Sequence record: SRR20825010_1094
Direction: 5' to 3' (one strand)
Length of the DNA stretch: 38,763 nucleotides
The translations under genes were made by a program, and so were the position numbers. The number at the start of each line of letters is the position of its first letter. Positions within the stretch are counted from its first letter, which is position 1. The notes beneath the pieces were generated by a model, which was given only the letters and a program-made list of their open reading frames with translations, made no database searches and had not been told where the DNA came from. Positions 15,898 to 38,582 of this stretch are shown here, one piece after another.

Positions 15898-16554
15898 TTA
15901 AGCTGTTGTGTCCGCCGCACTTAGGCCAACGCTTTTGAGCACAAGATCGATCACGGTCGTCTTGGCCTCCTCAAACTGAGCGTCGTCAAGCGGGTCACCC
16001 TCGTTCATCACATCAATCTGCGCGGCGAAATCCGCATAATGCTGGGTTGTGGCCCAGATCATGTAAAACAGGTAGCGCGACTTAACAGGGGAAAGCTTGC
16101 CCTCGGCTATCCAGCGTTCCAGCACACGCTCGCGGCTCTCAAGCCATGGCTTCACCGTACCAATCAGATATTCCTGCAGAAACGGTGCGCCAGAGGCCAT
16201 CTCTATCGCCCAAAGCCGGGAACCATGAGGACGCGAACGGGCCAGATCCATCTTGGAAGCCACATAGGTACGCAGCGCCTGCGCCGGGTTTTCCGTCTCA
16301 TCGAAAGTATCGGCCGCATGCAGCCAGATCGAACACACGCCTTCTATCACCCGGCGGTAAAGGTCTTCCTTCGCGCCGAAGTAATAATAGACATTGGGTT
16401 TGGGTACACCAGCGCGCTCGGCAATCAAACCGACGCTCGCTCCCTTAAAGCCCTTCTCAGCAAATACTGTTTCCGCCGCCACCAGTATCTTAGCTACATT
16501 TTCTCGGCGGATCCCGGCTTTATGGCCGGTTTCTTTTTTTGTTTTGTCCGTCAT
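15898..16554 (-). CDS. rutR: TetR family regulator, RutR-like (uracil/thymine-responsive)
   Basis: TetR HTH (ILVAAETVFAEKGF...IAERAGVPKPNVYYYF) plus RutR C-terminal signature IWATTQHYADF; start at ATG 16554 after SD GGGGA. Confidence 0.85.
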   Translation of the reverse strand: MTDKTKKETGHKAGIRRENVAKILVAAETVFAEKGFKGASVGLIAERAGVPKPNVYYYFGAKEDLYRRVIEGVCSIWLHAADTFDETENPAQALRTYVASKMDLARSRPHGSRLWAIEMASGAPFLQEYLIGTVKPWLESRERVLERWIAEGKLSPVKSRYLFYMIWATTQHYADFAAQIDVMNEGDPLDDAQFEEAKTTVIDLVLKSVGLSAADTTA

Positions 16555-16616
16555 AGGTCCCCCTAAGGCCACCTTTAACCACACTTCAACACAAAGGTCT
16601 ATTCAGATGTGGTGCT

Positions 16617-16648
16617 AAAGAAAACGCCCGGGAGGGTCCCCCGGGCGT
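16617..16648 (-). terminator. Intrinsic terminator of the TonB-dependent receptor gene
   Basis: ACGCCCGGG...CCCGGGCGT stem followed on the minus strand by TTTCTTT. Confidence 0.8.
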
Positions 16649-16673
16649 CATATATGGGGTCACAAGTTCAGGA

Positions 16674-19826: not shown

Positions 19827-19955
19827 TCCCTAAGCTCCATTAACGTGCCGATGTATCTTCTGGAAGGGCCCCCTTCGATCCCGGCACTGAACGACTAATT
19901 CGCTGTTTTAAAAAAAGTCTCACACACAGAACATGCACATCGAAACAACCAAATC

Positions 19956-19971
19956 CTGACCGAAAGGTCAA
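19956..19971. promoter_or_regulatory. RutR-like box upstream of TonB receptor (proximal)
   Basis: CTGACCGAAAGGTCAA; 11/12 match to TTGACC-N4-GGTCAA. Confidence 0.75.
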
Positions 19972-20036
19972 GTCAGGCCGTTCCTGCGCACAATTGCTGC
20001 GTCGCATGACTTTTATGCTCGGTTTTTTTCAGTTTT

Positions 20037-20052
20037 TTGACGAAAGTGTCAA
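20037..20052. promoter_or_regulatory. RutR-like box upstream of TonB receptor (distal)
   Basis: TTGACGAAAGTGTCAA; perfect TTGAC-N6-GTCAA with the same flanks as the 28860 site. Confidence 0.75.
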
Positions 20053-20170
20053 GATTCATTGGAAGGCTGCGATTTATAGCAACCGCAATTCCCTTTAAAG
20101 TGACGCAAAGGGCACAGCTCCGCCACTTTTCGCAGAAATCTGCGCTTTCGCTTTCATATGAAACTGTGGC

Positions 20171-20207
20171 TTAAAAACAACAAGGAGGGCGCTCATCACG
20201 CCCTCCT
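20171..20207 (-). terminator. Intrinsic terminator ending the bmp-ABC-cdd-deoA-deoB-S1/P1 operon
   Basis: AGGAGGGCG-N7-CGCCCTCCT stem followed on the minus strand by TGTTGTTTTT. Confidence 0.75.
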
Positions 20208-20255
20208 CACACCCATTATGCGAATCGTTTAGTCCCACACCGGGGTTTTATCTCG

Positions 20256-21047
20256 TTATTCTCCGATGTCAGCGAACAGCTTGTTCAGGTGGCCAGCAAG
20301 CCGAATTCCGCCCTTTGAAAGCTGTGATTTAATCACCGGCGTGTATTTATAAACATAGTCGTAGCTGAAGATCGCGTTGCCCACATTATAGATATCGGCC
20401 CGCATCGCAATCAGCTCACGCACCCAATCTATAGGCTGCGCGCCCTGCCACTCTGTTACCTGTGCCGGGGTAATCTTGGGCTCAAGAAAGCGCACCCATT
20501 CAGTGAAAGAAAGCAGCTTGTAATCAATCAGGTCCTCATCCCACACCTTGTGAAGGTTGCTCATCTCCTCAAACCACACCACGTCAATACGGTTTCCGCC
20601 CCAATCTTCAGCGCGACCCGCGTGAAGTGGCTGGTGCAGGTCGCCAACAATATGGATGATAAAACGAAGCGCGAGTTGGCGTTCTTCCAGCGGCAACGCC
20701 GCGTCCTTCACCTTTTCGCTATACATCGCGAGCGCTGTCAGCGCGTCACCGGCAGGGTTCTTGACGCTGTCTTCATACGTCACACCGTCTGGCAGGTTAA
20801 TGTAGTGGTAGGTCTGTGATTCCTTGCGCCAGAAGGCATCGGGGTTAGAGCGCATTTCGTCGGGCCAGTTTGCAGCTTCGGCCATAAACTCGGTGCCCAG
20901 CAGTTCCTTCACCGCTGCCTCAGCCTCAGGCGTGAGGTGGCGTGATGCCAGCTCCGCGATCACCCGGTGGCCCGTTGGCCCGTAAGCGCTGGCCGCAGCA
21001 GAAAGGCCCGCCACCATTACCAACCCACAAAATAGTTTGCGCAACAT
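20256..21047 (-). CDS. S1/P1 nuclease, exported
   Basis: Signal peptide ending AAASA then YGPTGH; zinc-ligand motifs WPD, HYIN, HIVGDLHQPLH, NLHKVWD, GGIRLA. Confidence 0.93.
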   Translation of the reverse strand: MLRKLFCGLVMVAGLSAAASAYGPTGHRVIAELASRHLTPEAEAAVKELLGTEFMAEAANWPDEMRSNPDAFWRKESQTYHYINLPDGVTYEDSVKNPAGDALTALAMYSEKVKDAALPLEERQLALRFIIHIVGDLHQPLHAGRAEDWGGNRIDVVWFEEMSNLHKVWDEDLIDYKLLSFTEWVRFLEPKITPAQVTEWQGAQPIDWVRELIAMRADIYNVGNAIFSYDYVYKYTPVIKSQLSKGGIRLAGHLNKLFADIGE

Positions 21048-21087
21048 ACCCCTTGCTCCCCTCAATCAAATATTCAGTCTGAATTTG

Positions 21088-22305
21088 TTAAAATGCGTTT
21101 TCGCCGTCATCCAAAGCGGCGATACCCAAGTGATGCGCCACACTTTGCCCGATATCGGCGAAGCTTTTACGAACGCCCTTGCTACCCGGCCCTAGGTTGG
21201 GGCCATAAGCCACAAAAGGCACATGCTCACGTGTATGGTCGCTGCCCGGCCAAGTCGGGTCGCAGCCGTGGTCGGCCGTCAGGATAACAACATCGTCCGC
21301 CTTCATGCCGTTTAGAAACTCTGGCAGGCGGCCATCAAAATATTCCAGTGCGGCAGCATAGCCCCCCACGTTGCGGCGATGCCCAAAGGACTGGTCAAAA
21401 TCGACAAAATTAACGAAGGTCAACGAGCCTTCCGGTGCGCTGTCAAGTTTCTCGAGCGATACTTCAAAAAGCCCATCCAGGCCGTTAGCTTTTACCTTCT
21501 GGGTCAAACCACGGTGCGCAAATATATCTGCAATCTTGCCAACAGAGATCACTTCCCTGCCCGCGTCCTCCAGCTTTTCCAGAAGGGTTGGCTTGTGGGG
21601 CGGTGTAGCAAGGTCGCGGCGGTTGCCGGTACGCTCAAACGTGCCGTTCTCCCCCACAAAGGGCCGTGCGATCACGCGGCCAATGTTATATTCATCCACC
21701 AGTTCCCGCGCGACAGCACAAACTTCATAAAGCCTCTCAAGGCCGAAATGCTCTTCATGCGCTGCAATCTGGAACACACTATCGGCTGAGGTGTAAACAA
21801 TCGGCTTGCCGGTGCGGATATGCTCATCGCCAAGCTCTTCCAATATCACCGTGCCCGAGGCCGCCTTATTGCCAATCACGCCCGGTAGGCCACACCGTTC
21901 AATCAGCTCATTCAAAAGCTTTTCAGGAAAGCTCGGGTATTTCTGCTCAAAATAGCCCCAGTCAAATTCAACCGGCACACCCGCCATTTCCCAATGGCCA
22001 GATGGTGTGTCTTTCCCGAAAGACCGTTCCGCGCACGCCGCATAAAGCCCGGTGACCTTGCCGTCCAGCTCCAGCCCTTTTGGCTCCTTACCTGTTGCCA
22101 GCTCCGCCGCTTTACCAAGCCCAAGCCGTGCCATGTTTGGCAGAGACAGCGGGCCCGCGGTCTCGCGCTCCGGTGCCGTATTGCCCGCCGCGCACCAATC
22201 CGCAATATGGCCAAGCGTATCCGCGCCCACATCACCAAATTTTTCCGCGTCGGGGGCTGCACCAATGCCAAAACTGTCGAGAACCAAAATAAAGGCCCGT
22301 GCCAT
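21088..22305 (-). CDS. deoB: Phosphopentomutase
   Basis: [68 protein letters not shown]. Confidence 0.97.
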
Positions 22306-22307
22306 CT

Positions 22308-23654
22308 CTATTCTCCGATTGTTTGTGCGACGATCGGGCCTGCGCTCACGGCGGCCGCAGATATCGTCACTGCACTATGGAAACGGCTGATCGCATCATC
22401 TGCTGCCGCCTCTGTCTTAGCATACACCATCGCAAGCGGTTGGTCCGCCTGCAGACTATCGCTGATCTGACAAATCTCCGTGAACCCAACGCTGTGATCA
22501 ACGGCTTGCGAGGGGCTTGTACGTCCGCCACCAAGCGCCACCACAGCCATGCCAATCGCGCGCGTATCCATCGCCGCCACATATCCCGCCTTGCCTGCCA
22601 ATACCGGTTTCACAATAGGCGCAAGCTTGAGGTAGCTGTCTTTCTTTTCAAACAGGTCATTGGGGCCACCTTGCGCGGCCACCATTTTTTCAAACAGGCC
22701 AGCTGCATCGCCGCGCATCAGGGCAACCGCAGCCTTGTCGCGCGCGGTGTCAAAGTTTGGTTGCGCGCCAGAAAGGCTGAGCATATGGGCAGCGAGATCA
22801 AGGGTGATATCCACGAGCCGCTTGTCAGCTGTCTTGGGGTTTACCAGAAACTCGATGGTCTCAAAAACCTCAACCGCGTTGCCTGCTGTACGGCCAAGCA
22901 CCTGGTTCATGTCGGTCAGAAGGGCTGTTGTTGGCACACCAGCAGCGCCCGCAACACGCACAATATTGCGCGCAAGCTCTTCTGCTTTCTCATAGCTGTC
23001 CATAAAGGCGCCATTGCCGAACTTCACGTCCATCACCAAAGCATTCAGCCCGGCAGACAGTTTTTTCGACAAGATGGAAGCGGTGATCAGCGGGATGCTC
23101 TCGACCGTCGCGGTCACGTCGCGGATACCATAGAAGCGCTTGTCCGCAGGGGCGAGGTCGCCCGTTTGACCGATAATCGAACAACCAACGGTTTTTACGA
23201 TATCTGCAAACTTGTTAATGCTCGGGTATGGGTCGTAGCCTGGGATGGACTCGAGCTTGTCGAGCGTGCCGCCCGTGTGGCCAAGCCCACGACCAGAAAT
23301 CATCGGTACATAACCACCACATGCCGCCACAATCGGCGCCAGCATAAGGCTTACCTTATCACCCACACCACCCGTGGAGTGTTTGTCCACAATCGGCGCA
23401 CCAGCTTCAAAACCCAGCTCTGTCCAGTTCATAACATCGCCGCTGTCCCGCATGGCAAGCGTCAGCGCTGCGCCCTCTTCCGGGCTCATGCCGTTAAAGA
23501 ATACCGCCATACCAAGGGCTGCAACTTGCCCGTCCGTTACGCTGCCATCCGTAATGCCCGCGACAAAACGCTTGATATCGGCATCGGGAACCACACCGCC
23601 ATCACGTTTGATGCGGATCACTTCTTGCGGCAAAAAGGCGCCAGCTTCACTCAT
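22308..23654 (-). CDS. deoA: Thymidine phosphorylase
   Basis: [60 protein letters not shown]. Confidence 0.96.
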
Positions 23655-23683
23655 CACACTTCCTCTGCTTCTCAGCGTTCTGG

Positions 23684-24091
23684 TTATTCAGAAAGGTTTT
23701 CAGGCCCGAACGAGTGCGGCAACAGCTCGGCGCTCGTGGTTTCCAGCAACACGGTGCCTTTGTGGTCAACAATTGTGACAGGCGCGCCAGCCTGGCCTGC
23801 AAACTCGCGTATCTGCTGCCTGCAACCACCACAGGGGGTGCACACATGTGTGCCCGGCCCCGCAATCACGATATGCTTGATCTGGTTTGCGCCCTGCATG
23901 ATCATATTGCCAATGGCATTGGCCTCCGCGCAGAAGCTGAGCGGATAGGCCGCGTTTTCCACATTGCAGCCAGCTACCACCTTGCCGTCTGAGGTCAGCA
24001 GCGCTGCCCCCACCGGGTGGTTGGAATAGGGGGCGTAGGCTTTAGCTTGCGCCTCAAGCGCAGCATCAATCAATTGTTTAACATCCGCCAT
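23684..24091 (-). CDS. cdd: Cytidine deaminase (homotetrameric type)
   Basis: AYAPYS, GCNVENAAY, CAE, PCGGCRQ. Confidence 0.95.
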   Translation of the reverse strand: MADVKQLIDAALEAQAKAYAPYSNHPVGAALLTSDGKVVAGCNVENAAYPLSFCAEANAIGNMIMQGANQIKHIVIAGPGTHVCTPCGGCRQQIREFAGQAGAPVTIVDHKGTVLLETTSAELLPHSFGPENLSE

Positions 24092-24093
24092 GC

Positions 24094-25068: not shown

Positions 25069-26168
25069 GCCGCCCTCCTCTCGAACCGCATGAACAGGCG
25101 CTCAATCGGGTCGCGGAACATATGCTCCATCGCACCAGCGAACAAGATCACAAGCCCCTGGATCATCACGATCAGATCTCGGGTGATATTGGGCATTTCA
25201 AACGCCAGTTCCGCCCCGCCCTGATAAAGTGCCCCAAAGAGGACTGCTGCCAGCACAATGCCTAAAGGATGGTTGCGCCCCATGAAGGCCACGGCAATGC
25301 CAACGAAGCCGTAACCAAGCGTGAAATTGCCAATAAGGCGGTGCTGTTCACCAAGGATTTCATTCAGCCCCATCATGCCCGCAAGCGCGCCGGAAATCAT
25401 CATCGCCACAATGGTCATGCGCGCTACAGGCACACCGGCAAACCGCGCCGCACTGTGGTTTTTGCCCACCACACGCAACTCATAACCAAACCGCGTACGG
25501 TTCAACGTAAACCAAACCGCAATTACACATAGAAGCGCGATGAGGGCAGAGATGTTCAACGGGCTTTCTTCAAAACTGACCCCAAGAGCGCCAAACAGCT
25601 CGTGCATGGGCGTGAGGCCTGTGCCCGGCGGGAAATCCGCGCTTTCAGGCATCTGGCCGCCGGGGCGCTGCAATGGGCCCACAAGCAGATAGGCCAGAAG
25701 AGCCGAGGCGATAAAATTGAACATGATGGTGGTGATCACAATATGGCTGCCACGCTTGGCCTGTAACCACGCCGGGATAAAGGCCCACGCGGCACCAAAA
25801 AGCGCCGCCCCCACGATACCTGCGAGGGCCGCAAGCATGGGCGCGTCACCACCAACCATAAACACAGCGAGCGTGAGGCCAAGCCCGCCCAGCATCGCCT
25901 GTCCTTCACCGCCGATGTTAAAAAGCCCGGCATGATAGGCAACAGAGACCGCAAGCCCGGTAAAGACAAAATTGGTGGCGTAATAAAAGGTATAGCCGGT
26001 GGCTTCTTCAAACCCGAATGCCCCCTCCCACATCAGGGAAAGTGCCAGAAACGGGTCTTCGCCCAACCCCCAAATTACAAGGCCAGAGACGATGAAGGCC
26101 GCGAGCAGGTTAAGCGCAGGCAGTAGCCCGACTTCCGCCCACAACGGCAGTTTGGATGCGCGCGCCAT
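25065..26168 (-). CDS. Nucleoside ABC transporter permease (NupB-like)
   Basis: GLFNIGGEGQ, VITTIMFNFIA, GYGFVGIAVAFMGRNHP. Confidence 0.9.
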   Translation of the reverse strand: MARASKLPLWAEVGLLPALNLLAAFIVSGLVIWGLGEDPFLALSLMWEGAFGFEEATGYTFYYATNFVFTGLAVSVAYHAGLFNIGGEGQAMLGGLGLTLAVFMVGGDAPMLAALAGIVGAALFGAAWAFIPAWLQAKRGSHIVITTIMFNFIASALLAYLLVGPLQRPGGQMPESADFPPGTGLTPMHELFGALGVSFEESPLNISALIALLCVIAVWFTLNRTRFGYELRVVGKNHSAARFAGVPVARMTIVAMMISGALAGMMGLNEILGEQHRLIGNFTLGYGFVGIAVAFMGRNHPLGIVLAAVLFGALYQGGAELAFEMPNITRDLIVMIQGLVILFAGAMEHMFRDPIERLFMRFERRAA

Positions 26169-27727: not shown

Positions 27728-28744
27728 TTAGTGACCGGAGTTGCTGCCAGCCACGTCACCAACGACGATTTCACCGCTGATAATGGCGGCCCGCGCTGCA
27801 TCCAGCGCGGTTTTCATATCGTCGGTAATCAGGCCTGCGTTATGCTCATCAAGCGCATAATCAACACCGCCAGCCTCAAGGCCCATCACACGGTGGCCGG
27901 CCTCCCATGTGCCTTCGCGTGCTTCTGTCATTGCAGTATAGACGGCAAGGTCCACCCGCTTGAGCATGCTGGTAAGCACCGAACCAGGCGCAACATGATT
28001 TTGGTTGCTATCCACACCAATCGCGAGTTTGCCGCTGTCTTTCGCGGCCTGAATAACACCAAGACCGGAGGGGCCAGCGGCAGAAAACACAATGTCCGCA
28101 CCCCGCGCATATTGGCTTCGTGCCATCTCAGATGCCTTGATCGGGTCATTCCACGCACTTGGCGTTGTGCCTACATAATTCTCGATAATGGTCATGTCAT
28201 CACGCACATAGGCGATGCCTTCACGGTATCCTTGCTCAAACCGGCGAATGAGCGGGATGTCCATGCCACCGATAAAACCAACGGTGCCCGATTCGCTCTT
28301 CATCGCCGCAATCATGCCCACAAGGAACGATCCTTCGTTTTCCTTGAAAGTGATGGATTGCACGTTGGGAAGATCAATAATCGCGTCAATAACGGTGAAT
28401 TTTACGTCCGGGTACTGGCTTGCCACATTACGAACCGCAACGGAATAGCCAACACCCACGGCCACAATCAGGTCTGCCTTACGGCGGGCAAAACGCTTGA
28501 GCGCCTGTTCATACTGGGTTTCGCTCGAAGGCTCGAAGTCGCGGAAATCCGCGCCTGTCTCTTCCTTGAAACGCGCAGCACCCACATAAGCCGCTTCGTT
28601 GAAGGATTTATCGAATTTGCCGCCGATATCATAAAGCAGCACGGGCTGTACTTCTGCGGCCTGCACGGCACCCAAAGTAGCCCCCACAGCCACAAGACCA
28701 ACAGCCAGCGCTTTCAAGCAAAATGCCTTCACCAAATTCGTCAT
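27728..28744 (-). CDS. BMP family nucleoside-binding periplasmic protein
   Basis: Signal peptide from ATG 28744 (SD GGAG); GGKFDKSFNE, EGSFLVG, GFIGGMD, AIGVDSNQ, SMLKRVD. Confidence 0.92.
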   Translation of the reverse strand: MTNLVKAFCLKALAVGLVAVGATLGAVQAAEVQPVLLYDIGGKFDKSFNEAAYVGAARFKEETGADFRDFEPSSETQYEQALKRFARRKADLIVAVGVGYSVAVRNVASQYPDVKFTVIDAIIDLPNVQSITFKENEGSFLVGMIAAMKSESGTVGFIGGMDIPLIRRFEQGYREGIAYVRDDMTIIENYVGTTPSAWNDPIKASEMARSQYARGADIVFSAAGPSGLGVIQAAKDSGKLAIGVDSNQNHVAPGSVLTSMLKRVDLAVYTAMTEAREGTWEAGHRVMGLEAGGVDYALDEHNAGLITDDMKTALDAARAAIISGEIVVGDVAGSNSGH

Positions 28745-28837
28745 GTATTTGTCACTCCCAGGCAGCATAAAGTTGAGCGGAAAATTGCGTCTTCATTTAT
28801 GCCCTTATATTGTGGATTGGCGCAAGGGAACCAGAGC

Positions 28838-28859: not shown

Positions 28860-28875
28860 TTGACGTTTTGGTCAA
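28860..28875. promoter_or_regulatory. RutR-like box in bmp/upp divergent region
   Basis: TTGACGTTTTGGTCAA; 12/14 match to the E. coli RutR consensus TTGACCAnnTGGTCAA. Confidence 0.8.
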
Positions 28876-28945: not shown

Positions 28946-29584
28946 ATGACCCAAAATGTTACTGTGGTGGACCATCCGCTGGTGCAGCACAAACTCACAC
29001 TGATGCGGCGCAAAGAGGCGAGCACAGCTGAGTTTAGAAAGCTTCTGCGTGAGATTGGCCTGTTTTTGGGCTATGAGGCGCTCAGGGATTTGCCGCTTGG
29101 CAAAATCCAGATCGACACGCCCATTTGCACAATGGAAGCCCCCGTACTTGCAGGCAAAAAGCTCACGTTTATCTCTGTGCTGCGGGCGGGTGATGGCCTT
29201 TTGGGGCCAATGCTTGACCTCGTGCCAAGTGCCCGGGTTGGCCAGATTGGCCTCGCACGTGATGAAGAAACGCTTCAACCCACAAAATATTTCTTTAAAG
29301 TACCAAACGATCTGACCGACCGGCTGAATGTGGTTCTTGACCCCATGCTCGCGACCGGTCATTCAGCTGTTCGGGCTGTGCAGGAAATCAAGGATGCGGG
29401 TGCTGTGGACATCAAGTTTGTCTGCCTGCTAGCCGCACCTGAAGGCATCAAAACCTTCACGGAAGCACACCCGGACGTGCCTGTTGTCACCGGCGCTATC
29501 GATGAGAGGCTGAATGAAAAAGCCTATATCGTGCCGGGCCTGGGCGACGCTGGCGACAGACTGTTTGGAACCAAAGGGGTTTAA
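28946..29584 (+). CDS. upp: Uracil phosphoribosyltransferase
   Basis: [45 protein letters not shown]. Confidence 0.97.
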
Positions 29585-29589: not shown

Positions 29590-30144
29590 ATGAGCGTTAC
29601 CAAAAAATATGTAACCGCGCAGGAATTGCTGGACGATTCGTTCCAGCTCGGCATCCAAATTCTCCAAAGTGATTTCCGGCCCAAGTTCATTGTCGGTGTC
29701 TGGCGTGGTGGCACACCAACCGGTATCGCTGTGCAGGAAATCATGGATTATTACGGTGTTCACACCGACCATATCGCCATCCGCACCTCAAGCTACATTG
29801 GCATGCAGCAGCAGAAAGAGGTGAAGGTTCACGGGCTTGAGTACATCATCAACAACATCAATGCGGAAGACAGCCTTCTCATTGTGGATGACGTGTTCGA
29901 CAGCGGCCGTTCGATTGACGCTATCGTCAATCACCTGAAGGCAAAATGCCGCCGCAACACGCCTGAGGTGATCAAGATCGCGACGGTGTTTTATAAACCA
30001 GAGCGCAATGTCACCAATCTGGTGCCGGACTTCTATTGCCATGAAACCGATGACTGGCTTGTGTTCCCACACGAACTTTCAGACATGACCAAAGAAGAAA
30101 TCAAGAACCATAAAGGCCTTGTTCTGCCTGAGATTGAAGTCTAA
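29590..30144 (+). CDS. Type I phosphoribosyltransferase, probably hypoxanthine/xanthine/guanine PRTase
   Basis: GVWRGG, PRPP loop LIVDDVFDSGRS, WLVFPHE; sits between upp and PNP. Confidence 0.8.
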   Translation: MSVTKKYVTAQELLDDSFQLGIQILQSDFRPKFIVGVWRGGTPTGIAVQEIMDYYGVHTDHIAIRTSSYIGMQQQKEVKVHGLEYIINNINAEDSLLIVDDVFDSGRSIDAIVNHLKAKCRRNTPEVIKIATVFYKPERNVTNLVPDFYCHETDDWLVFPHELSDMTKEEIKNHKGLVLPEIEV

Positions 30145-30183: not shown

Positions 30184-31002
30184 ATGAGCTTTGAGGACGT
30201 GCAAACCTGCGCAGGTTTTATTCGCGAGCGTTTCACCGGCGACATGCCCAAATTGGCCATGGTGCTTGGCAGCGGGCTCAACAGCCTCGCAGATGCCATT
30301 GAGGACGCCACCGTATTTTCCTTCATCGACCTGCCCGGCTTCCCGAAGCCAACGGTAGAAGGCCACGCGGGCCGCATGCTGATCGGAAAACTGGGCGGCA
30401 AGCCCGTTATTTGTATGCAGGGCCGCGCGCATGCTTATGAAGGCCATTCGGAAGAAAAGGTCGGTTTTGCAACGCGCGTCCTGTGGGCCTTGGGCGTTGA
30501 AATTCTGGTGCTCACCAATGCGGCGGGTAGCCTGCGTACAGAAGTTGGCCCCGGCAGCCTGATGGCGATCACCGACCATATCAATTTCTCGGGCATCAAC
30601 CCGCTTGTGGGCGTGAACGACGACCGCTTCGGTCCCCGTTTCCCAGATGTCACCGAGGCCTGGAACAAGAAGCTCACCAAAAAGCTGCATAAGTGCGCCA
30701 CCAGCCTGAACATCGACCTGCATGACGGTGTTTATCTGATGGCCAAGGGGCCTAATTTTGAAACACCCGCGGAGATCCGTGCTTTCAAAGTTATGGGCGC
30801 GGACGCGGTCGGCATGTCCACCGTGCCGGAATGCCTTGTGGCCAAACATGGCGGCATGAAGGTTGTGGGCATCAGCTCCATCACCAATCTGGCTGCTGGC
30901 ATGCAGGCGGAACTTACTCACCATGAGACCATGGAATACGGCGCCATCGCTGCGGTAAATCTTGAGAAACTGCTTCGCGCCTTTGTGGAAGAAGTGCTCT
31001 GA
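30184..31002 (+). CDS. punA: Purine nucleoside phosphorylase, trimeric (PunA/XapA) type
   Basis: LGSGL, GHAG, QGRAHAYEG, TNAAG, GPNFETPAE, VGMSTVPE, ITN. Confidence 0.92.
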   Translation: MSFEDVQTCAGFIRERFTGDMPKLAMVLGSGLNSLADAIEDATVFSFIDLPGFPKPTVEGHAGRMLIGKLGGKPVICMQGRAHAYEGHSEEKVGFATRVLWALGVEILVLTNAAGSLRTEVGPGSLMAITDHINFSGINPLVGVNDDRFGPRFPDVTEAWNKKLTKKLHKCATSLNIDLHDGVYLMAKGPNFETPAEIRAFKVMGADAVGMSTVPECLVAKHGGMKVVGISSITNLAAGMQAELTHHETMEYGAIAAVNLEKLLRAFVEEVL

Positions 31003-31033: not shown

Positions 31034-31061
31034 GCCCGAACATTAGTTCGGGCTTTTTTTT
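31034..31061 (+). terminator. Intrinsic terminator of upp-PRT-PNP operon
   Basis: GCCCGAAC-ATTA-GTTCGGGC followed by 8 T. Confidence 0.9.
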
Positions 31062-31100
31062 ATCCAATTTGAGCTGGAAAGCCGTGCTGAGCACAAACAA

Positions 31101-31130
31101 TAAAAAGGCCTGAACCGAGTTCAGGCCTTT
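31101..31130 (-). terminator. Intrinsic terminator of deoC-ALDH (possibly bidirectional)
   Basis: AAAGGCCTGAAC-CGA-GTTCAGGCCTTT perfect 12-bp stem with A/T flanks. Confidence 0.85.
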
Positions 31131-31172
31131 GTTATATTTTGGATCTAAAGCCCCATACCTATTGGTGTTTGA

Positions 31173-33581: not shown

Positions 33582-33592
33582 CTGGCCCTCCC

Positions 33593-34564
33593 TTAGCCCA
33601 TTGGATGGCGGTAACCCGCCGAGTAGCCGCCAAAGGCATGATATTCTAACTGCCGCTCAAGATCGCCCAAGAGGCTTGATGCCCCGAAGCGGAACAGCTC
33701 CGGTTCAAGCCACGCGCGGCCAAGTTCTTCTTTCACCAATGTGAGATAAGTAACCGCATCTTTCGCGGTTTTAATGCCGCCTGCAGGTTTGTAGCCAACC
33801 TTGATACCGGTACGGTCATAAAAGTCACGGATCTGACGCATCATCACAAGGCTTACAGGAAGGGTCGCGTTCACGCCTTCCATGCCGGTGGATGTCTTGA
33901 TGAAGTCTGAGCCTGCCATCATGGCAACCATGGATGCTTTGGCGACCTGATTGAGACTGCCGTGCTCCCCTGTCGCCAAAATGGTCTTCATGTGGGCCGA
34001 GCCGCAGGCTGCCTTAAAGGCTTTCACTTCGTCGTACAGCGCTTCCCAGTTTCCTGTGAGCACGTTGGAGCGGGTTACAACAATGTCGATCTCCCGAGCC
34101 CCTGCTTCAACGGAGCGTCGAATTTCCTCGAGCTTGGTCTCAAGCGGCGCAAGTCCCGCCGGAAAACCTGTGGACACAGCGGCGATCGGTACACTGGACC
34201 CCTTGAGCACCTTCGCCGCATCGGCCACCATGGCGTGGTACACACATACGGCACCGGTGGTAAGGCCCATATCAGCCATGCCAAATACATCAAGGATATC
34301 ACGCCGGACCGGGCTCATGGCCTTCTGGCACAGGCGCTTCACACGGCCTGCCGTGTCGTCGCCTGCCAGCGTCGTCAAATCGATGCAGCTGATTGCCTTT
34401 AGCATGAACGCAATCTGAGCATCTTTTTTGACAGACCGGCGGGTGGCGATGGTGCCGGTGCGGCGCTCCACCGCGCTTTTATTGACACGGATGCTGTCCA
34501 GCCAATCGGCGTGGAAGCTTGTGCCCTGATTAACACAGGTCTCAGGTCTCGTCGCAGAAGTCAT
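33593..34564 (-). CDS. deoC: Deoxyribose-phosphate aldolase (long, eukaryote-DERA-like form)
   Basis: IDLTTLAGDDT, AVCVY, GFPAG, EIDIV, DFIKTSTG, GYKPAGGI, FRFGASSLL; about 55-aa N-terminal extension. Confidence 0.96.
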   Translation of the reverse strand: MTSATRPETCVNQGTSFHADWLDSIRVNKSAVERRTGTIATRRSVKKDAQIAFMLKAISCIDLTTLAGDDTAGRVKRLCQKAMSPVRRDILDVFGMADMGLTTGAVCVYHAMVADAAKVLKGSSVPIAAVSTGFPAGLAPLETKLEEIRRSVEAGAREIDIVVTRSNVLTGNWEALYDEVKAFKAACGSAHMKTILATGEHGSLNQVAKASMVAMMAGSDFIKTSTGMEGVNATLPVSLVMMRQIRDFYDRTGIKVGYKPAGGIKTAKDAVTYLTLVKEELGRAWLEPELFRFGASSLLGDLERQLEYHAFGGYSAGYRHPMG

Positions 34565-34608
34565 CGTCTGTCCCGGTATTGATTAAACTCGTGACTAAAA
34601 GCCAGTTC

Positions 34609-34624
34609 CTGACTGTAAGGTCAA
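34609..34624. promoter_or_regulatory. RutR-like box upstream of deoC
   Basis: CTGACTGTAAGGTCAA, overlapping the stop codon of the upstream permease; its minus-strand start TTGACC is also a -35-like hexamer. Confidence 0.65.
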
Positions 34625-36240
34625 GAATTTGTTTTGGCTGGTTCCTCGTTTTTCAAGAAGCCTGCTGCATATAACATCAGGCCCGCAATGAGATAACCCG
34701 CTGCCAGTCGGTGTGCCAACACTTCAGCGCCACCAAGGCTTGGGATTGCCCATGGCAGGTACATCTCGGACGTGGGCATGACCGAATGGATAATACCAAA
34801 TTCAGTGCACAGGGCGGCAGCAAAAGCCGCGCAGGCCGCGCGGGTCATCTTGCGGTCAATGATCCAAACAATCATCGCCCCCCAGATGAGGCTTGTGAGG
34901 ATATAGCCCCGCGCCATCGCACCCAGCAGCATATAGCCCGCAAGCCATTCTTGCGTGAGAAGCCCGTCCGCCACATTCACGACCCTACCGTACAAGTCTG
35001 ACACTTTTGTGTGCGCATAATTAAGGATGGCGGGAACAGTTGCGAATAGCAGCGCCGGTGCATGCCGCGCATCACCACCCGCAAACGCAAGGCGCAGGAT
35101 ATCGCTTGCTACCACCACCAAAATCGGCTTCAGCACCGCTTCGGGGATCAACTGTGAAGCCAGCTCAATAATGCCGAGAAAACCGATTACAGTGACAACC
35201 GCAGTTGCGCCCAGAGCATACCCCGTGCGCGCACCCATGCGCTTGTAGGTGGCGTGGCCAAAATAGGGTGTGGTTTGCACAACACCGCCAAAAAGCGCGC
35301 TCACGGCTGTCGCCGCCGCATCAAGCCGCACTACTTTACCGGCGTCAAACTCATCGCCCGCAATGCGTGCACCCGCCACCACATTCACCGCGCTTGCAGC
35401 GATAAGAAGAGCGAACGGCAGAATAATACCAAGCTGATTGGTCACATCACCAAACACTGCCAGATAGCCTTCAATGGTCGGCATCGGCAACACGGGGCGG
35501 AAATCCACCGCAACGTTGATCACATAACCTTCGCCCGCGCCCGCAAATGCCAGCACATAATAAAGGATAGTGCCCGCCACAATCGCGAGGATCGAGCCCG
35601 GCATGTTAAAGGGCAACCGGTGGCCTGCGATCAGCGCAAACGCCATGATCACGAGCGATACAATGCCCACTTCCGGCAGGGAGAAGATGCCGTATATGGC
35701 CTCAGCCCCTAGCCACACGGTTGCGATACCCGCCATAGCGCCCACAAGCGCCATTTGCGGCAATTGCTGCTGCATAGCTCGGCCAAAGTAGGAAAGCCCG
35801 AACTTGATAGCTGCCATCCATACGGTTGCCGCCATGCCCAAAATCCAGGCTTTATCGGCCGCAGCTTCAACGCCCATGGCGTCCACATTCATGGCATAGG
35901 CTGGACCAATGATGAAGAAGCACATGCCAAAGAGCGTGGGCAAATCCATACCCAGTGGAATGCTGGTAAGCTTCTGGTTGCCTGTTTCCTCAACCGTTTT
36001 TTTGGTAAGCCAGGCAAACACAAGGTTGCCGAAAATGATACCAACGATAGCGCCCGGAATAATACGGGAGAAGATATGTTCCGCCGGGAAACTGAACGCG
36101 CCCATCAGCACGCTCGCCAGCACAAACATATTTACCGTTACGTCCAGAAAAAAAGCAACGCCCGCATTCAGGTCCGCTGAAAACTGTGATGGTGGCGGCG
36201 CGACCCCGCCCAGCGAACCCGTGTTGTTACTATCGGCCAT
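34621..36240 (-). CDS. Nucleobase permease (NCS2/AzgA-like xanthine/uracil permease family)
   Basis: About 14 hydrophobic segments; TSIPLGMDLP, TTPYFGHATYKRMGARTGY, GYILTSLIWGA; nucleoside-locus context. Confidence 0.7.
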   Translation of the reverse strand: MADSNNTGSLGGVAPPPSQFSADLNAGVAFFLDVTVNMFVLASVLMGAFSFPAEHIFSRIIPGAIVGIIFGNLVFAWLTKKTVEETGNQKLTSIPLGMDLPTLFGMCFFIIGPAYAMNVDAMGVEAAADKAWILGMAATVWMAAIKFGLSYFGRAMQQQLPQMALVGAMAGIATVWLGAEAIYGIFSLPEVGIVSLVIMAFALIAGHRLPFNMPGSILAIVAGTILYYVLAFAGAGEGYVINVAVDFRPVLPMPTIEGYLAVFGDVTNQLGIILPFALLIAASAVNVVAGARIAGDEFDAGKVVRLDAAATAVSALFGGVVQTTPYFGHATYKRMGARTGYALGATAVVTVIGFLGIIELASQLIPEAVLKPILVVVASDILRLAFAGGDARHAPALLFATVPAILNYAHTKVSDLYGRVVNVADGLLTQEWLAGYMLLGAMARGYILTSLIWGAMIVWIIDRKMTRAACAAFAAALCTEFGIIHSVMPTSEMYLPWAIPSLGGAEVLAHRLAAGYLIAGLMLYAAGFLKNEEPAKTNS

Positions 36241-36305
36241 TTTGTCCCCTAACTTCCATTTTTACGCATACCGCCCCCCGCGGCACGAGCATGTGTTCGT
36301 TTGTA

Positions 36306-37856
36306 TTAGTTGAATGATGTGCGCTTGCGAACCGGAATGCGCATGCTGTCCTCGAAGGTGCGGAACCGCTCCTCCAGTTTCCATTGCATGCGCGCTTTTT
36401 CACTCTCGTTCAGCAGGGCCTGACACTCAGCGCCAGGATCTTGCCCTCTATCCACATCACGTGAGCACGCTTCACTGCCCCACAGGCTACTACCCGGCAG
36501 GAAGCTATAGGTTAGCGCGTTGCGTGAGGTGTGGCGAAGCTCAAAATACGGCACATCATATTCCGTATAGAACCGCATATATTCGTGTGTCAGATCGATG
36601 CGTGACACGCCCTCGTCATCGGTTGAAAGCGCATAAGGCACCAGCATATCGCGGTAAAGCGCGAGCGGATGTTCGGTGCCTGAAACACCAAGAATTGTGT
36701 CATTGCTGGTGAGGTTGATCTCAACCATGATCTCGTTTTCGACCATATGTTTGATCAGGCCTTCCATGTCCCACTCATAAACCACAGCAATACCGTGGCC
36801 AATGCGTTTGGCGTGGCCGATCTCAATGGCTTCACGCATATGGAAGGTAAGCTGATGAGGCCGCACAAGGCCAAGCGTCAGTTCACCCGCATGCAGCGCC
36901 ACATTGCGCGGGCCCAAATTATTATAGAGATGGTCGATCATGCGCATATGCAGCGTGTAATCACGCAGCGCACGGAAGCCATCCTCTGGCGCCACAAGGT
37001 TCATGCCCACCATCTTCGGCTCGTCCGCCATCAGTTGCCAGCCAAGGATAAACTGGCCAAACACCATGGCCGGGTCAAACTCGCGCACCACCTGATGCAA
37101 GAGGCGAATTTCAACATCACACCCGGCATCAGGCGTATCGGAGCCACAGCCAAGAAGCTTGTTTTTTTTGGCATAGGCCGCGGCAATCTGCTTGCGAGCA
37201 GATGCCACCAGTTCCGGCATCTGTTGCCCGAACTTGCCTTTCATCAAAGCCTGATAATCTCCATTCAAATCGCCAGACAATTTCACATTGCCCAGAAGCG
37301 GAAACAGCTCAGGAAAGATGATGGTTTCCATCAGTTCTAGGTACAGAATGTTCTGCCGCCCCGCCCTGCGCGCCACTTCAGCAAGCTGGTCACCAAGCCG
37401 CTTGGGCGATGCTGCAATACGGGGAAAGGTGGCAAAAAAATCATTATGGCCAGACCAGTTGAGCGTCGGCACATAGGAACGGTTCGAAAGCGAGTTGATG
37501 ATCTCCCTGCGGTGATCCTCATCCATGCGCGCTTCTTCCGCTGTCAACCAACCGCTGGCGGCGCATGTCTCTGCCGCTTTAAACTTGAGGGCTGGCACGC
37601 TCATGTCTGCGCAAAGACCATCTTCTGCGGCCCAATCGAGCCACGATTCGGCATATACAGCGCCGCGTAGGTGGTTGTGCAGGTCACCCCCCTTGGGGAA
37701 GCTTTCCATCATGGGGCGCAGGCGGCCATTTTCAGCCGACCAGGCGAGCACATCACCTGCCGTACGAGCCTTCAGGGCGCGCAAATCATCGGCCTCGGCT
37801 GACGGTCGGCACAGAAGCGCCACCACCAAAAGCAAGGTAAAACCGATGGTCCGCAT
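36306..37856 (-). CDS. Adenosine deaminase family protein with Sec signal peptide (ADA2/ADGF-like size)
   Basis: ATG 37856 after SD GAGGAG gives signal MRTIGFTLLLVVALLCRPSAEA; PKGGDLHNHL, ALHAGE, RIGHG, STDDEG. Confidence 0.87.
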   Translation of the reverse strand: MRTIGFTLLLVVALLCRPSAEADDLRALKARTAGDVLAWSAENGRLRPMMESFPKGGDLHNHLRGAVYAESWLDWAAEDGLCADMSVPALKFKAAETCAASGWLTAEEARMDEDHRREIINSLSNRSYVPTLNWSGHNDFFATFPRIAASPKRLGDQLAEVARRAGRQNILYLELMETIIFPELFPLLGNVKLSGDLNGDYQALMKGKFGQQMPELVASARKQIAAAYAKKNKLLGCGSDTPDAGCDVEIRLLHQVVREFDPAMVFGQFILGWQLMADEPKMVGMNLVAPEDGFRALRDYTLHMRMIDHLYNNLGPRNVALHAGELTLGLVRPHQLTFHMREAIEIGHAKRIGHGIAVVYEWDMEGLIKHMVENEIMVEINLTSNDTILGVSGTEHPLALYRDMLVPYALSTDDEGVSRIDLTHEYMRFYTEYDVPYFELRHTSRNALTYSFLPGSSLWGSEACSRDVDRGQDPGAECQALLNESEKARMQWKLEERFRTFEDSMRIPVRKRTSFN

Positions 37857-37955
37857 ATTTTCCTCCCTCAAGGCTTGCCGAAGCCAGACGAACTGCCTAG
37901 GCTCGCGTCACACCATATCCCAACATTCGGGCAAAGAACATAAGACAGATCGCGC

Positions 37956-38582
37956 ATGGCCAAACTGTATTTTTATTATTCCGCGATGAATGCGGGTAAA
38001 ACCACAACTCTCCTGCAATCCAGCTTCAACTATCAAGAGCGCGGCATGAACACAATGTTGTTCACGGCGTCTATTGATGACCGTTTTGGTGAGGCTGTCA
38101 TTGCTTCCCGTATCGGCCTCAAAGCTGGTGCACATCTATTCGACGCGAATATTGACCTTTTTGTCAAGATTGCAGATGCGCTAAAAACGCGCCCCATCCA
38201 TTGTATCCTTGTGGACGAGGCCCAATTCCTGACCAAGGACCACGTATTCCAGTTGGCGTCGGTGGCCGATGTGCTGAAAATACCGGTGCTTTGTTACGGC
38301 CTTCGAACTGACTTCCAAGCCACGCTTTTTGAAGGCAGCAAATGGCTTCTCGCCATCGCCGATGAACTGCATGAGTTGAAGACAATATGCAAATGCGGCT
38401 CTAAGGCCACCATGAACCTGCGCATTGATGCTGAAGGCCGTGCGGTAAGCGAGGGTGCGTCTATCGAGATCGGAGGCAACGACCGTTATATCGCGCTGTG
38501 CCGCAAGCATTTCATGGAGAAATTGAACGGCCCCGGCAAGTTGCCGGAGCTTTCACCAACCGCGCTGGATATGGACAGCTGA
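37956..38582 (+). CDS. tdk: Thymidine kinase
   Basis: [42 protein letters not shown]. Confidence 0.96.

Follow-up and report, generated by a model that had tools for sequence, protein, structure and literature searches.

Our analysis describes an 18-gene locus in the genome of a Kordiimonas-like alphaproteobacterium (a marine Kordiimonas), which resembles a system for feeding on nucleic-acid debris and is presented here as a candidate for one. We propose, tentatively and with a probability that we put at roughly 45%, that the locus forms one regulon under a RutR-type repressor and scavenges such debris by way of a TonB-dependent receptor through which the breakdown products would enter. The observations on which this reading draws are the gene identities, the synteny, the conservation of the operator sequences and the linkage, across taxa, of the receptor to nucleotide and nucleoside genes.

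Gene content and organization of the locus

Within the window, that is, the whole 38,763-nucleotide stretch of sequence record SRR20825010_1094, 18 contiguous open reading frames span positions 15898-38582, and each was assigned to a family by Pfam or NCBIfam models where these matched (Table 1). The genes listed in a first-pass annotation of this DNA are all found where it placed them, and in the families that it named, bar a 539-aa protein without a family match. The nucleoside genes are all single-copy in the 4.18-Mb genome and every one of them lies within this locus, and clustering to this extent did not come about by chance; a NupC-type gene was looked for in the genome and not found. 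Rather than a single operon, the locus holds at least six transcription units with strong terminators between them. A terminator lies on either side of the receptor gene, the one at its 3' end making it a monocistronic unit, and the terminator downstream of the nuclease gene marks the end of an eight-gene BMP-to-nuclease operon.

Table 1. Genes, intrinsic terminators and operator-like palindromes of the locus, in order of position in the window.
Feature	Position	Strand	Basis or remark
RutR-like TetR-family regulator	15898..16584	-	TetR_N + TetR_C_3
Intrinsic terminator 3' of receptor gene	16623..16649	-	12-pair stem (9 G-C), then T run
TonB-dependent receptor, Oar-type architecture, 1050 aa	16674..19826	-	CarboxypepD_reg + Plug + OMP_b-brl_4
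Operator-like palindrome, box 2, 5' of receptor	19956..19971	.	TTGACCTTTCGGTCAG on - strand; conserved across genus
Operator-like palindrome, box 1, 5' of receptor	20037..20052	.	TTGACACTTTCGTCAA; exact TTGACN6GTCAA
Intrinsic terminator 3' of nuclease gene	20180..20210	-	13-pair stem, then T run
Exported S1/P1 nuclease	20256..21065, probable ATG start 21047	-	PF02265 192.7 bits (cut-off 29.5)
Phosphopentomutase DeoB	21088..22305	-	NF003766 553.5 bits (cut-off 256)
Thymidine phosphorylase DeoA	22308..23657	-	TIGR02643 620.7 bits (equivalog cut-off 570.7)
Cytidine deaminase Cdd, tetrameric type	23684..24091	-	NF004064 139.5 bits (cut-off 74)
Two ABC permeases	24094-25068, 25065-26168	-	BPD_transp_2 141.9 and 135.7 bits
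Double-domain ABC ATPase	26168..27703	-	ABC_tran, two matched stretches
BMP/PnrA-like periplasmic binding protein	27728..28768	-	PF02608 218.7 bits
Operator-like palindrome, divergent BMP/upp promoter region	28860..28875	.	TTGACGTTTTGGTCAA, exact match
Uracil phosphoribosyltransferase Upp	28946..29584	+	NF001097 274 bits (cut-off 114)
Phosphoribosyltransferase (PRT), weakly HGPRT-like	29590..30144	+	Pribosyltran 43.7 bits; TIGR01203 46.7 (cut-off 150)
Exact palindrome within PRT gene	29915-29930	.	Genome scan for TTGACN6GTCAA
Purine nucleoside phosphorylase (PNP), inosine/guanosine type	30184..31002	+	NF006054 360 bits (cut-off 218); TIGR01700 309 (cut-off 293)
Bidirectional terminator, PNP/aldehyde dehydrogenase gap	31104..31130	.	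12-pair stem, both strands
Aldehyde dehydrogenase, 802 aa	31173..33581	-	Aldedh 633.8 bits, residues 41-486
Deoxyribose-phosphate aldolase DeoC	33593..34564	-	TIGR00126 148 bits (cut-off 117)
Operator-like palindrome directly 5' of deoC	34609..34624	.	TTGACN6GTCAA with one mismatch
539-aa membrane transporter, candidate nucleobase permease	34621..36240	-	UraA/SLC26-type predicted fold
Exported adenosine-deaminase-like (ADA-like) protein, 521 aa	36306..37871, probable ATG start 37856	-	A_deaminase 61.9 bits, residues 283-459
Thymidine kinase Tdk	37956..38582	+	NF003300 296 bits (cut-off 195)
Exact palindrome within tdk (+196)	38152..38167	.	Same position in 5/7 relatives

The ABC genes comprise the set by which BMP/PnrA systems are recognized, namely a Bmp-family binding protein, two BPD_transp_2 permeases and a fused double ATPase; solved relatives of the binding protein include TmpC (2fqw) and Basic membrane proteins A and D. 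From its context, and by analogy with TmpC and BmpA/BmpD, this transporter would be specific for nucleosides. The aldehyde dehydrogenase, whose C-terminal 309 aa form a second, partial Aldedh domain (profile positions 17-237), presumably oxidizes the acetaldehyde released by DeoC.

Both the nuclease and the ADA-like protein carry N-terminal signals, in agreement with their original designation as exported enzymes. The nuclease begins with a signal peptide; when it is aligned with the S1/P1 structures 8qjl and 1ak0, the first residue of these chains falls on its residue 28, and the mature protein starts with Tyr in place of the Trp of solved members. Seven relatives keep the HxxGDLHQPxH and NLHxxWD motifs without change, and the zinc-ligand residues H26, D62, H131, D135, H137, H141, H165 and D169 are invariant in a seven-sequence alignment; the compartment in which the enzyme acts is probably the periplasm. 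The ADA-like protein has a hydrophobic N-terminal signal, keeps the HxH, HAGE, GHG and TDD motifs and weakly matches the ADGF-related model TIGR01431.

S1/P1 enzymes release 5'-mononucleotides, and BMP systems take nucleosides. The locus holds no nucleotidase or phosphatase, and neither a UshA-type (PF02872) 5'-nucleotidase nor PhoX is present in the whole genome; the pathway is thus incomplete, and to speak of a 'complete' locus with 'full' uptake and catabolism was too strong. Phosphatases of the PhoD and PhoA types are encoded in the genome outside the locus, and the step from nucleotide to nucleoside would thus rest on these unlinked genes.

For the 539-aa membrane protein, Pfam, NCBIfam and PDB sequence searches gave no match. 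Its homologues are named, in one source only, AGZA-family xanthine/uracil permease-like or adenine/guanine/hypoxanthine permease, and its AlphaFold2 model (pLDDT 82.6) is matched by Foldseek to prestin/SLC26, SVCT1, BicA, UraA and UapA (probability 1.00, TM about 0.45), a fold of the SLC26/SLC23/UraA superfamily, which includes anion transporters too. The proposal of a nucleobase permease is left without a Pfam or NCBIfam match but keeps the homologue names and the UraA/SLC26-type predicted fold, which make the protein a candidate for this role.

A RutR-like regulator and conserved palindromes

The regulator scores 151 bits against TetR_C_3, the YcdC-like C-terminal domain, and is without a second close copy in the genome. 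Among proteins of solved structure it is most similar to E. coli RutR, aligned over the full length (E 2.6e-41, residues 11-216); the RutR chains 6z1b and 3loc match at E of about 3e-41, and the next TetR match follows at E 4e-9. The protein falls under both NCBIfam RutR equivalog cut-offs (TIGR03613, 179 against 368 bits; NF011584, 165 against 230), which counts against our main explanation. What stands of the local RutR reported in the first-pass annotation is a RutR-like TetR protein with conserved operator sequences, which the NCBIfam models do not call as RutR itself. By analogy with the E. coli protein, its ligand would be uracil or thymine.

Exact TTGACN6GTCAA palindromes occur 14 times in the genome, four of them in the 22.7-kb locus (binomial P 8e-7); none of the other exact genomic sites examined adjoins nucleotide genes. 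Upstream of the receptor gene, all 23 Kordiimonas loci have at least one site and 22 of them have two. Box 1 overlaps a TTGACA -35-like hexamer and falls within a stretch of ~27 bp identical in 9/9 aligned species, the rest of the spacer being divergent. The site between BMP and upp recurs in each of the 18 Kordiimonas loci containing that spacer, and the site before deoC in all eight relatives that have the corresponding spacer. The palindrome within tdk may be an operator or simply conserved coding sequence. When the window was scanned with the RutR operator consensus, which we take to be TTGACCAnnTGGTCAA (type TTGACC-N4-GGTCAA), nine matches at three mismatches or fewer were obtained against 1.87 expected. 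To judge from their sequence, the palindromes are putative RutR-type operators common to the receptor, BMP/upp and deoC units.

The receptor, its slot and its linkage across taxa

The receptor has a signal peptide, a CarboxypepD_reg domain (PF13620, residues 32-114, 63.4 bits), a Plug at residues 140-234 that scores 22.7 bits, just below the cut-off of 23.9 (E 1.4e-4), and a barrel matched by OMP_b-brl_4 (PF25183, 182.6 bits) and PF00593 (35.9 bits); it ends in ...KYKF. The combination of a CarboxypepD_reg N-terminal extension with plug and beta-barrel places it in the Oar subclass. No close paralogue was found in the genome. It was also observed that the receptor gene has been exchanged among ancient lineages while its slot stays fixed.

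The order RutR-receptor-nuclease-deoBA-cdd-ABC-BMP is kept in 16/16 congeneric loci, with the receptor between the regulator and the nuclease/deo/BMP operon. Because it occupies this fixed slot throughout and has conserved RutR-type palindromes of its own, the receptor is part of the locus system. Receptor, nuclease and nucleoside genes also cluster, in a different arrangement, in two further families of the order: complete clusters with receptor, ADA-like gene and nuclease are found in another family (L016/L046/L113), and the nuclease adjoins the receptor in an Emcibacter locus (L043).

Outside the order, 26 loci with receptor homologues of 33-46% identity were surveyed in other alphaproteobacterial families and another class, and nucleotide or nucleoside genes lie beside the receptor in 10 of them. 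These neighbours are PhoD-like-deoB-deoA-cdd-ABC-BMP (L128), tdk, ADA-like and 539-aa permease genes (L129), a divergent UshA-like 5'-nucleotidase (L130), 5'-nucleotidase-BMP-ABC (L132), an EEP-family nuclease and/or a uridine kinase (L141, L143, L144) and, in a locus with two receptors, an S1/P1 gene (L142). Two genomes of another class (L139, L146) have the arrangement RutR-receptor-cdd-deoA-upp-tdk-deoC-deoB, each with a TTGACCATATGGTCAG site and with no hydrolase adjoining the receptor. Where hydrolases do adjoin receptors (S1/P1, UshA-like, PhoD-like, EEP), all act on phosphoesters. The synteny expected of receptor, nuclease and nucleoside genes is thus borne out, in conserved order across the genus and in rearranged form in two other families, and in unrelated families and another class the receptor family has nucleotide or nucleoside genes as neighbours; the layout is, by the same token, not particular to this lineage.

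It is conceivable that the substrate of the receptor has nothing to do with nucleic acids and that its gene is a mere neighbour of nucleoside genes. Its gene is monocistronic, and 16 of the 26 distant loci show no nucleotide gene with the queries used here, three of them carrying agmatine-deiminase or CN-hydrolase genes instead. We regard this as improbable in view of the conserved operators common to the receptor and the nucleoside units, the persistence of the slot despite replacement of the receptor lineage, and the recurrence of the linkage in at least four other families and a second class.

Substrate and direction of transport

We infer both the substrate of the receptor and the direction of transport, and the oligonucleotide import put forward at the outset has the same standing. 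The nuclease is missing in two of 24 congeners, in which the receptor-deo locus and its operators are intact, and is thus dispensable; together with the two other-class loci that have no hydrolase, this indicates that the conserved core does not require an oligonucleotide substrate and that the receptor could equally take nucleotides or nucleosides.

Within the same regulon it is possible, although on balance we doubt it, that the receptor imports free nucleosides or bases with high affinity, as an energized functional analogue of Tsx, and that the nuclease is optional and serves extracellular or other substrates. The core found across taxa, which consists of RutR, receptor and pyrimidine-nucleoside enzymes (cdd, deoA, upp, tdk, udk) with no hydrolase (L139, L146, L144), fits such an importer, as do the two nuclease-less congeners that keep receptor, operators and deo genes, and the E. 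coli regulator of this type senses a free pyrimidine base. TonB-dependent receptors for small nutrients are known, for example for N-acetylglucosamine uptake in Caulobacter (as given in the table of a review). Against this, a Tsx-family channel is encoded elsewhere in the genome, so that free nucleosides already have an entry, which makes a larger or a charged substrate more likely for the receptor. Moreover, Kordiimonas, L128 and L132 each have a phosphoester hydrolase gene beside the receptor, within the nucleoside-uptake operon, and periplasmic phosphoester hydrolases make sense only if phosphorylated substrates enter.

The receptor could also face outward in function, like Myxococcus Oar, and secrete the S1/P1 nuclease and/or the ADA-like enzyme, so that DNA or RNA would be digested extracellularly; we consider this very improbable. 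The Oar-subclass architecture (the subclass as defined in the parts of PMC6434023 drawn on here) would suit this role, the neighbours of the receptor in several taxa are exported enzymes, and the nuclease has a Sec signal only, so an outer-membrane route would be needed for it to meet polymeric DNA. Yet the receptor and its operators persist in both nuclease-less congeners, the other-class loci hold a receptor with no exported enzyme alongside, and the adjoining enzymes have unrelated folds, all of which one channel would need to recognize. The same N-terminal extension is, furthermore, common among importing receptors in the domain survey of that paper.

A model for the use of nucleic-acid debris

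In the scavenging model that we favour, the TonB-dependent receptor would be the energized outer-membrane entry for breakdown products, of which nucleotides and short oligonucleotides are the likeliest. Single-stranded fragments would be cleaved in the periplasm by the Sec-exported S1/P1 nuclease to 5'-mononucleotides, from which PhoD- or PhoA-type phosphatases encoded elsewhere would take off the phosphate, and the exported ADA-like enzyme could convert adenosine to inosine, fitting a PNP of the inosine/guanosine type. Nucleosides would enter through the BMP-type ABC system and be broken down by Cdd, DeoA, PNP, DeoB, DeoC and the aldehyde dehydrogenase to bases, glyceraldehyde-3-phosphate and acetate or acetyl units; the rest would be salvaged by Upp, PRT and Tdk, and free bases would be moved by the UraA-fold permease. 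Breakdown would set free uracil or thymine, which would lift RutR-type repression at the TTGACN6GTCAA operators. Taken as a whole, the interpretation given in the first-pass annotation is partly supported.

Comparison with known systems

In E. coli the deo/cdd/udp/tsx nucleoside regulon is under CytR/DeoR control. It has DeoA, DeoB, DeoC, Cdd and PNP in common with the Kordiimonas locus, as well as a co-regulated, dedicated outer-membrane route, but this route is the passive Tsx in E. coli and a TonB-energized receptor of 1050 aa here, the regulator is of another family, and NupC or NupG takes the place of the ABC/BMP system. The E. coli RutR regulon (rut operon, carAB) has a regulator of the same TetR subfamily and an operator of the same type; its targets belong to the Rut pyrimidine-ring pathway, whereas the putative targets in Kordiimonas are nucleoside uptake and catabolism, the nuclease and the receptor. 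Leyn et al. 2016 reconstructed the RutR regulons of 68 Proteobacteria, and a RutR-controlled receptor may already stand in their gene lists, which extend beyond the portion of the paper used here (PMC5343134).

Vibrio cholerae uses extracellular DNA by means of secreted nucleases and periplasmic phosphatases, encoded by unlinked genes, for the acquisition of phosphate (PMC4714964). The succession of extracellular or periplasmic nucleases, dephosphorylation and uptake would be common to both systems, and the passages of that description drawn on here mention no dedicated TonB receptor. Unlike it, the Kordiimonas locus would serve carbon and nitrogen use and the salvage of nucleoside moieties, and has no phosphatase of its own. 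Oar of Myxococcus xanthus, which exports the protease PopC, has the same architecture as our receptor, with a CarboxypepD_reg extension, plug and 22-strand-type barrel (PMC6434023, in the parts cited); the two are compared at the level of common Pfam domains, and the context here points to nutrient uptake.

PUL-like ddbABCDEF loci for DNA utilization in gut Bacteroidales were published in 2025 (PMC12478041), so the general concept is not new here. In the parts of that paper considered, the likeness lies in the PUL-like logic, which is explicit in ddb, in downstream deamination (to uracil and xanthine in ddb) and in the replacement of receptor subtypes at one fixed genomic site. The hosts belong to different phyla, and ddb pairs DdbC, its transporter, with DdbD, a DUF5689 surface protein, and encodes three nucleases that belong to other families, whereas none of the 18 locus proteins matches DUF5689 and the nuclease here is of the S1/P1 type. 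Nor does ddb, as described there, include downstream genes for nucleoside uptake and catabolism or a RutR, which in Kordiimonas are clustered and have common operators. No locus protein (0/18) matches the SusD family, and no unassigned open reading frame adjoins the receptor; the adjacent SusC-like and SusD-like pair of a Bacteroidota-type PUL is absent from the locus. By its gene content, and with the receptor and DdbC compared by description, the locus may represent a proteobacterial form of PUL-like DNA use that is non-homologous to ddb.

Gene content and transcription units

The window belongs to a complete chromosome of 4.18 Mb, and we treat the source organism as a Kordiimonas (Kordiimonadales, Alphaproteobacteria), since its closest named relatives, as judged from the nuclease (84-93% identity to Kordiimonas MAGs, K. 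gwangyangensis and K. aestuarii), belong to that genus. Pfam and NCBIfam searches bear out the first-pass annotation of 18 contiguous genes and the families assigned to them. DeoA, DeoB, DeoC, Cdd, PNP, Upp, Tdk, the BMP protein, the adenosine-deaminase-like (ADA-like) protein, a 539-aa permease and the regulator are each encoded by a single-copy gene, all within the locus. Strong intrinsic terminators follow the receptor and nuclease genes, and a bidirectional terminator lies between the PNP and aldehyde dehydrogenase genes; their positions divide the locus into six predicted transcription units: BMP-ATPase-permease-permease-cdd-deoA-deoB-nuclease, the receptor alone, the regulator, upp-PRT-PNP, ADA-like-permease-deoC-aldh, and tdk.

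Features of the nucleic-acid locus and its surroundings (window positions unless a contig is named)
Feature	Position	Strand	Remark
18-gene locus	15898-38582		
RutR-like TetR regulator	15898-16584	-	
TonB-dependent receptor	16674-19826	-	1050 aa, Oar architecture
Terminator	16649-16623		3' of receptor gene
Terminator	20210-20180		3' of nuclease gene
Operator-like box 2	19956		upstream of receptor
Operator-like box 1	20037		upstream of receptor, 81 bp from box 2
Operator-like box	28860		divergent BMP/upp spacer
Operator-like box	34609		directly before deoC
Palindrome in PRT	29915-29930		exact copy, coding
Palindrome in tdk	38152-38167		exact copy, coding
Aldehyde dehydrogenase fusion	31173-33581		802 aa, beside deoC
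539-aa membrane protein	34621-36240		
556-aa gene	14217-15887		beside regulator
Tricorn-like protease	9353-12658		1101 aa; PD40, Tricorn_C1, PDZ, S41
M19 dipeptidase	7918-9210		
Second S1/P1 paralogue	G000:C1:3712629-3713504		chromosome contig; L103 5624-6535
Intergenic palindromes	G000:C1 994636, 1340364, 1394256		chromosome contig

The nuclease has a signal peptide, with residue 28 aligned to residue 1 of the mature solved S1/P1 chains, and its metal-ligand motifs are invariant among relatives. An N-terminal signal sequence is likewise present in the 521-aa ADA-like protein, which keeps the HxH, HAGE, GHG and TDD motifs. Neither a solved relative by sequence (E <= 0.001) nor a close paralogue within the genome was found for the receptor. 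The 539-aa membrane protein has no Pfam or NCBIfam match, and profile searches for solved relatives returned chance-level matches only; its homologues are named 'AGZA family xanthine/uracil permease-like' or 'adenine/guanine/hypoxanthine permease' (one source), and its AlphaFold2 model (pLDDT 82.6) matches the 7+7 fold of UraA/SLC23/SLC26. It is a plausible candidate nucleobase permease. Members of this UraA/SLC26-type family are regular neighbours of the exported ADA-like gene, a distant family (locus L129) included.

Three further observations concern the gene content. The aldehyde dehydrogenase is a fusion in which a full Aldedh domain is followed by a second, partial one (profile positions 17-237), and it is 77-97% conserved across the genus. 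The second S1/P1 paralogue of the genome (303 aa, 27% identity) adjoins an SRAP gene and has no link to nucleoside genes. The Tricorn-like protease and M19 dipeptidase encoded upstream are unrelated to the nucleic-acid locus.

The pathway and its missing steps

S1/P1 enzymes yield 5'-mononucleotides and BMP systems bind nucleosides. Because no nucleotidase for the step between the two is present in the locus, the earlier description of it as complete is too strong. Neither a PF02872 5'-nucleotidase nor PhoX was found anywhere in the genome; outside the locus there are three genes of the PhoD type and one of the PhoA type, one of these four being 12 kb past the window. The 556-aa gene beside the regulator was considered as a nucleotidase and rejected, as its product is membrane-anchored and resembles sulfatases and phosphoethanolamine transferases.

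No match to the nuclease was found in 2 of 24 congeners (L154 in genome G004, L155 in G011), where the S1/P1 gene is missing and the receptor directly follows deoB. Both keep operator sites upstream of the receptor and of BMP, and the nuclease is not essential to the arrangement. A stop codon or change of frame interrupts the deoB match in G011, and the pathway of this genome may therefore be undergoing decay.

Conservation and distant linkage of the receptor

Three independent lines of evidence, namely synteny, shared operators and linkage in distant taxa, indicate that the receptor belongs to the nucleoside system. The co-occurrence of receptor, nuclease and nucleoside genes expected from the first-pass annotation is found in all 16 congeneric loci, each with the order regulator-receptor-nuclease-deoB...BMP, and in other Kordiimonadales. 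A second family of Kordiimonadales (L016, L046 and L113) has all of the parts, rearranged as tdk, receptor, ADA-like, nuclease, PNP-PRT-upp, BMP...deoB-deoC-aldh, and in Emcibacter (L043) the nuclease directly adjoins the receptor.

Receptor homologues of 33-46% identity are encoded by 13 alphaproteobacterial genomes out of 301 sampled (E <= 1e-60) and, in a sample drawn across the phylum, by 36 out of 401 (E <= 1e-100). Nucleotide or nucleoside genes stand beside the receptor in 10 of the 26 loci examined outside the genus. The spacers between regulator and receptor carry TTGACCATATGGTCAG in L146 and TTAACCGTTCGGTCAA in L139.

Nucleotide and nucleoside genes beside distant receptor homologues
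Locus	Neighbouring genes
L128	PhoD-like phosphatase-deoB-deoA-cdd-ABC-BMP operon
L129	tdk, ADA-like gene, 539-aa permease
L130	divergent UshA-like 5'-nucleotidase
L132	5'-nucleotidase-BMP-ABC operon
L139, L146	RutR-receptor-cdd-deoA-upp-tdk-deoC-deoB (two genomes of another class)
L142	two tandem receptors adjoining S1/P1 gene
L141, L143, L144	EEP-family nuclease and/or uridine kinase

No nucleotide or nucleoside gene was found in the other 16 of these 26 loci, most of which were screened solely by tblastn with the window proteins and three added queries. Of these 16, three (L131, L134 and L138; receptor identity 39-43%) have agmatine-deiminase (PAD_porph), CN-hydrolase and PMT_2 genes beside the receptor, and their receptors may constitute a polyamine-related offshoot of the family.

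Viewed from the nuclease, a receptor is present in 24 of 80 S1/P1 homologue loci, all of them titled Kordiimonas, Kordiimonadaceae, Kordiimonadales or Emcibacter, or belonging to MAGs that are mislabelled or labelled to class only. The remaining loci have no receptor of this family within 10 kb, bar one weak match (L079, 41 bits); S1/P1 homologues outside Kordiimonadales are thus not linked to the receptor family. Nine Hyphomonas-type loci (L044-L065) have a cdd homologue about 2.3 kb from the S1/P1 homologue, with neither receptor nor deo genes, a smaller nuclease-deaminase pairing.

The regulator and its predicted operators

The regulator has a TetR_C_3 domain, and its best solved relative, over the full length, is E. 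coli RutR; its score is below the NCBIfam RutR cut-offs. For the E. coli RutR consensus, the window holds 9 matches where 1.87 would be expected. Of the 14 exact copies of the core TTGACN6GTCAA in the genome, 4 fall inside the 22.7-kb locus (P 8e-7). At least one site precedes the receptor in 23/23 Kordiimonas loci and two do so in 22/23, the BMP/upp spacer has its site in all 18 Kordiimonas loci that contain this spacer, and the site before deoC is present in all eight relatives having that spacer. An alignment of nine receptor-upstream regions highlights box 2, kept within an otherwise poorly conserved spacer, and box 1, which lies inside about 27 bp of invariant sequence starting with a TTGACA -35-like hexamer. 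This sharing of operators is hard to square with a receptor substrate unrelated to nucleic acids, which we regard as improbable.

Ten exact palindromes lie outside the locus, five of them intergenic or at gene starts. Those whose neighbours were checked adjoin no nucleotide genes, and for this reason the regulator appears to act locally. The two best outside candidates for a wider RutR regulon (a pseudouridine synthase with a beta-lactamase-like protein, and LptF/G with a DUF2141 protein) were rejected, neither being nucleotide-related. Three intergenic palindromes of the form TTGACA-GCGC-TGTCAA / TTGACA(G/C)CGCTGTCAA look like the operator of another regulator. The palindromes within tdk and PRT are either internal operators or merely conserved coding sequence; that in tdk recurs at the same position, +196, in 5 of 7 relatives.

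Receptor exchange in a fixed slot

The identity of the receptor to the window copy falls to 33-43% in many congeners, with the flanking genes staying at 60-90%. Four receptor types (A-D), 33-45% identical to one another, occupy the same operator-flanked slot (loci L021-L049), and their distribution conflicts with a tree of six flanking genes. In this tree type B is polyphyletic: K. gwangyangensis (type B) is nested within a type-A clade and L026 (type B) is sister to the type-A K. lacus/lipolytica group, and K. marina (type C) is sister to a type-A genome, each with SH-aLRT support of 99-100. In a wider receptor tree A/C, B and D lie in separate deep clades, among which homologues from another class and from other families are interspersed. 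The signal peptide and upstream operators are conserved across the types. On this evidence the receptor gene has been exchanged within a fixed slot, which suggests cassette replacement. Pressure from phages or bacteriocins is a possible driver, as are differences in the range of substrates.

Discussion

As the most likely reading, with a probability of roughly 0.45, we propose a model in which the receptor would be the TonB-powered entry for nucleotides or short oligonucleotides. The entering material would be converted to nucleosides by the periplasmic nuclease and unlinked phosphatases; the exported deaminase would turn adenosine into inosine, a step that fits the inosine/guanosine-type PNP; the ABC system would bring nucleosides in, and the deo enzymes and aldehyde dehydrogenase would consume the sugar. 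Free uracil or thymine would relieve repression. Uptake of free nucleosides at low concentration is the main rival, and the hydrolase-free core of L139 and L146 and the nuclease-less congeners fit it; we hold it to be somewhat less likely, favouring nucleotides or oligonucleotides because receptor neighbours encode phosphoester hydrolases and because a Tsx-family channel, whose gene is present elsewhere in the genome, could already admit nucleosides. The domain architecture of the receptor also suggests a role in Oar-like secretion (cf. PMC6434023), a most improbable one given that the receptor persists where its neighbours encode no exported enzyme.

The sea holds a large pool of carbon, nitrogen and phosphorus in the form of dissolved DNA and RNA, and to our knowledge the passage of charged nucleic-acid material across the outer membrane of Proteobacteria is poorly defined. 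The hypothesis of nucleic-acid scavenging is drawn wholly from sequence and has good comparative support. It is directly testable here, in a culturable genus with a single-copy receptor gene and a predicted regulator with defined operators, and nuclease-less species and four receptor lineages in one slot offer natural variants. If true, it would add a new substrate class to proteobacterial TonB transport and provide a genomic marker by which nucleic-acid foragers could be recognised in metagenomes. More broadly, and tentatively, the receptor may represent a widespread Oar-architecture family of marine Alpha- and Gammaproteobacteria dedicated to nucleotide or oligonucleotide import in RutR-controlled loci, analogous and non-homologous to Bacteroidota PULs and the ddb loci for DNA utilisation, with an interchangeable hydrolase (S1/P1, EEP, UshA-like or PhoD-like) and a receptor repeatedly replaced by anciently diverged lineages in the operator-flanked slot.

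Each enzyme taken singly is well known, as are the BMP system and regulators of the RutR type. Literature searches on the question yielded no proteobacterial TonB-dependent receptor for nucleotides or oligonucleotides. RutR regulons have been reconstructed across Proteobacteria (PMC5343134), in a paper whose main text, the gene tables being in its supplements, makes no mention of a RutR-controlled receptor. The first-pass annotation suggested that the integrated layout may be undescribed in this lineage, and the literature searches found no account of the locus in Kordiimonas; the general concept is already published, a 2025 study having demonstrated by experiment that Bacteroidales possess a PUL-like locus for DNA utilisation built around a TonB-dependent transporter (PMC12478041). 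Among the literature found, this ddb system is the only described analogue. As described there, it differs from the Kordiimonas locus in its DUF5689 partner, in its nucleases and in being without the downstream pathway. The two are alike in having alternative subtypes in one genomic site, mutually exclusive subtypes at a single site being reported for ddb also (PMC12478041).
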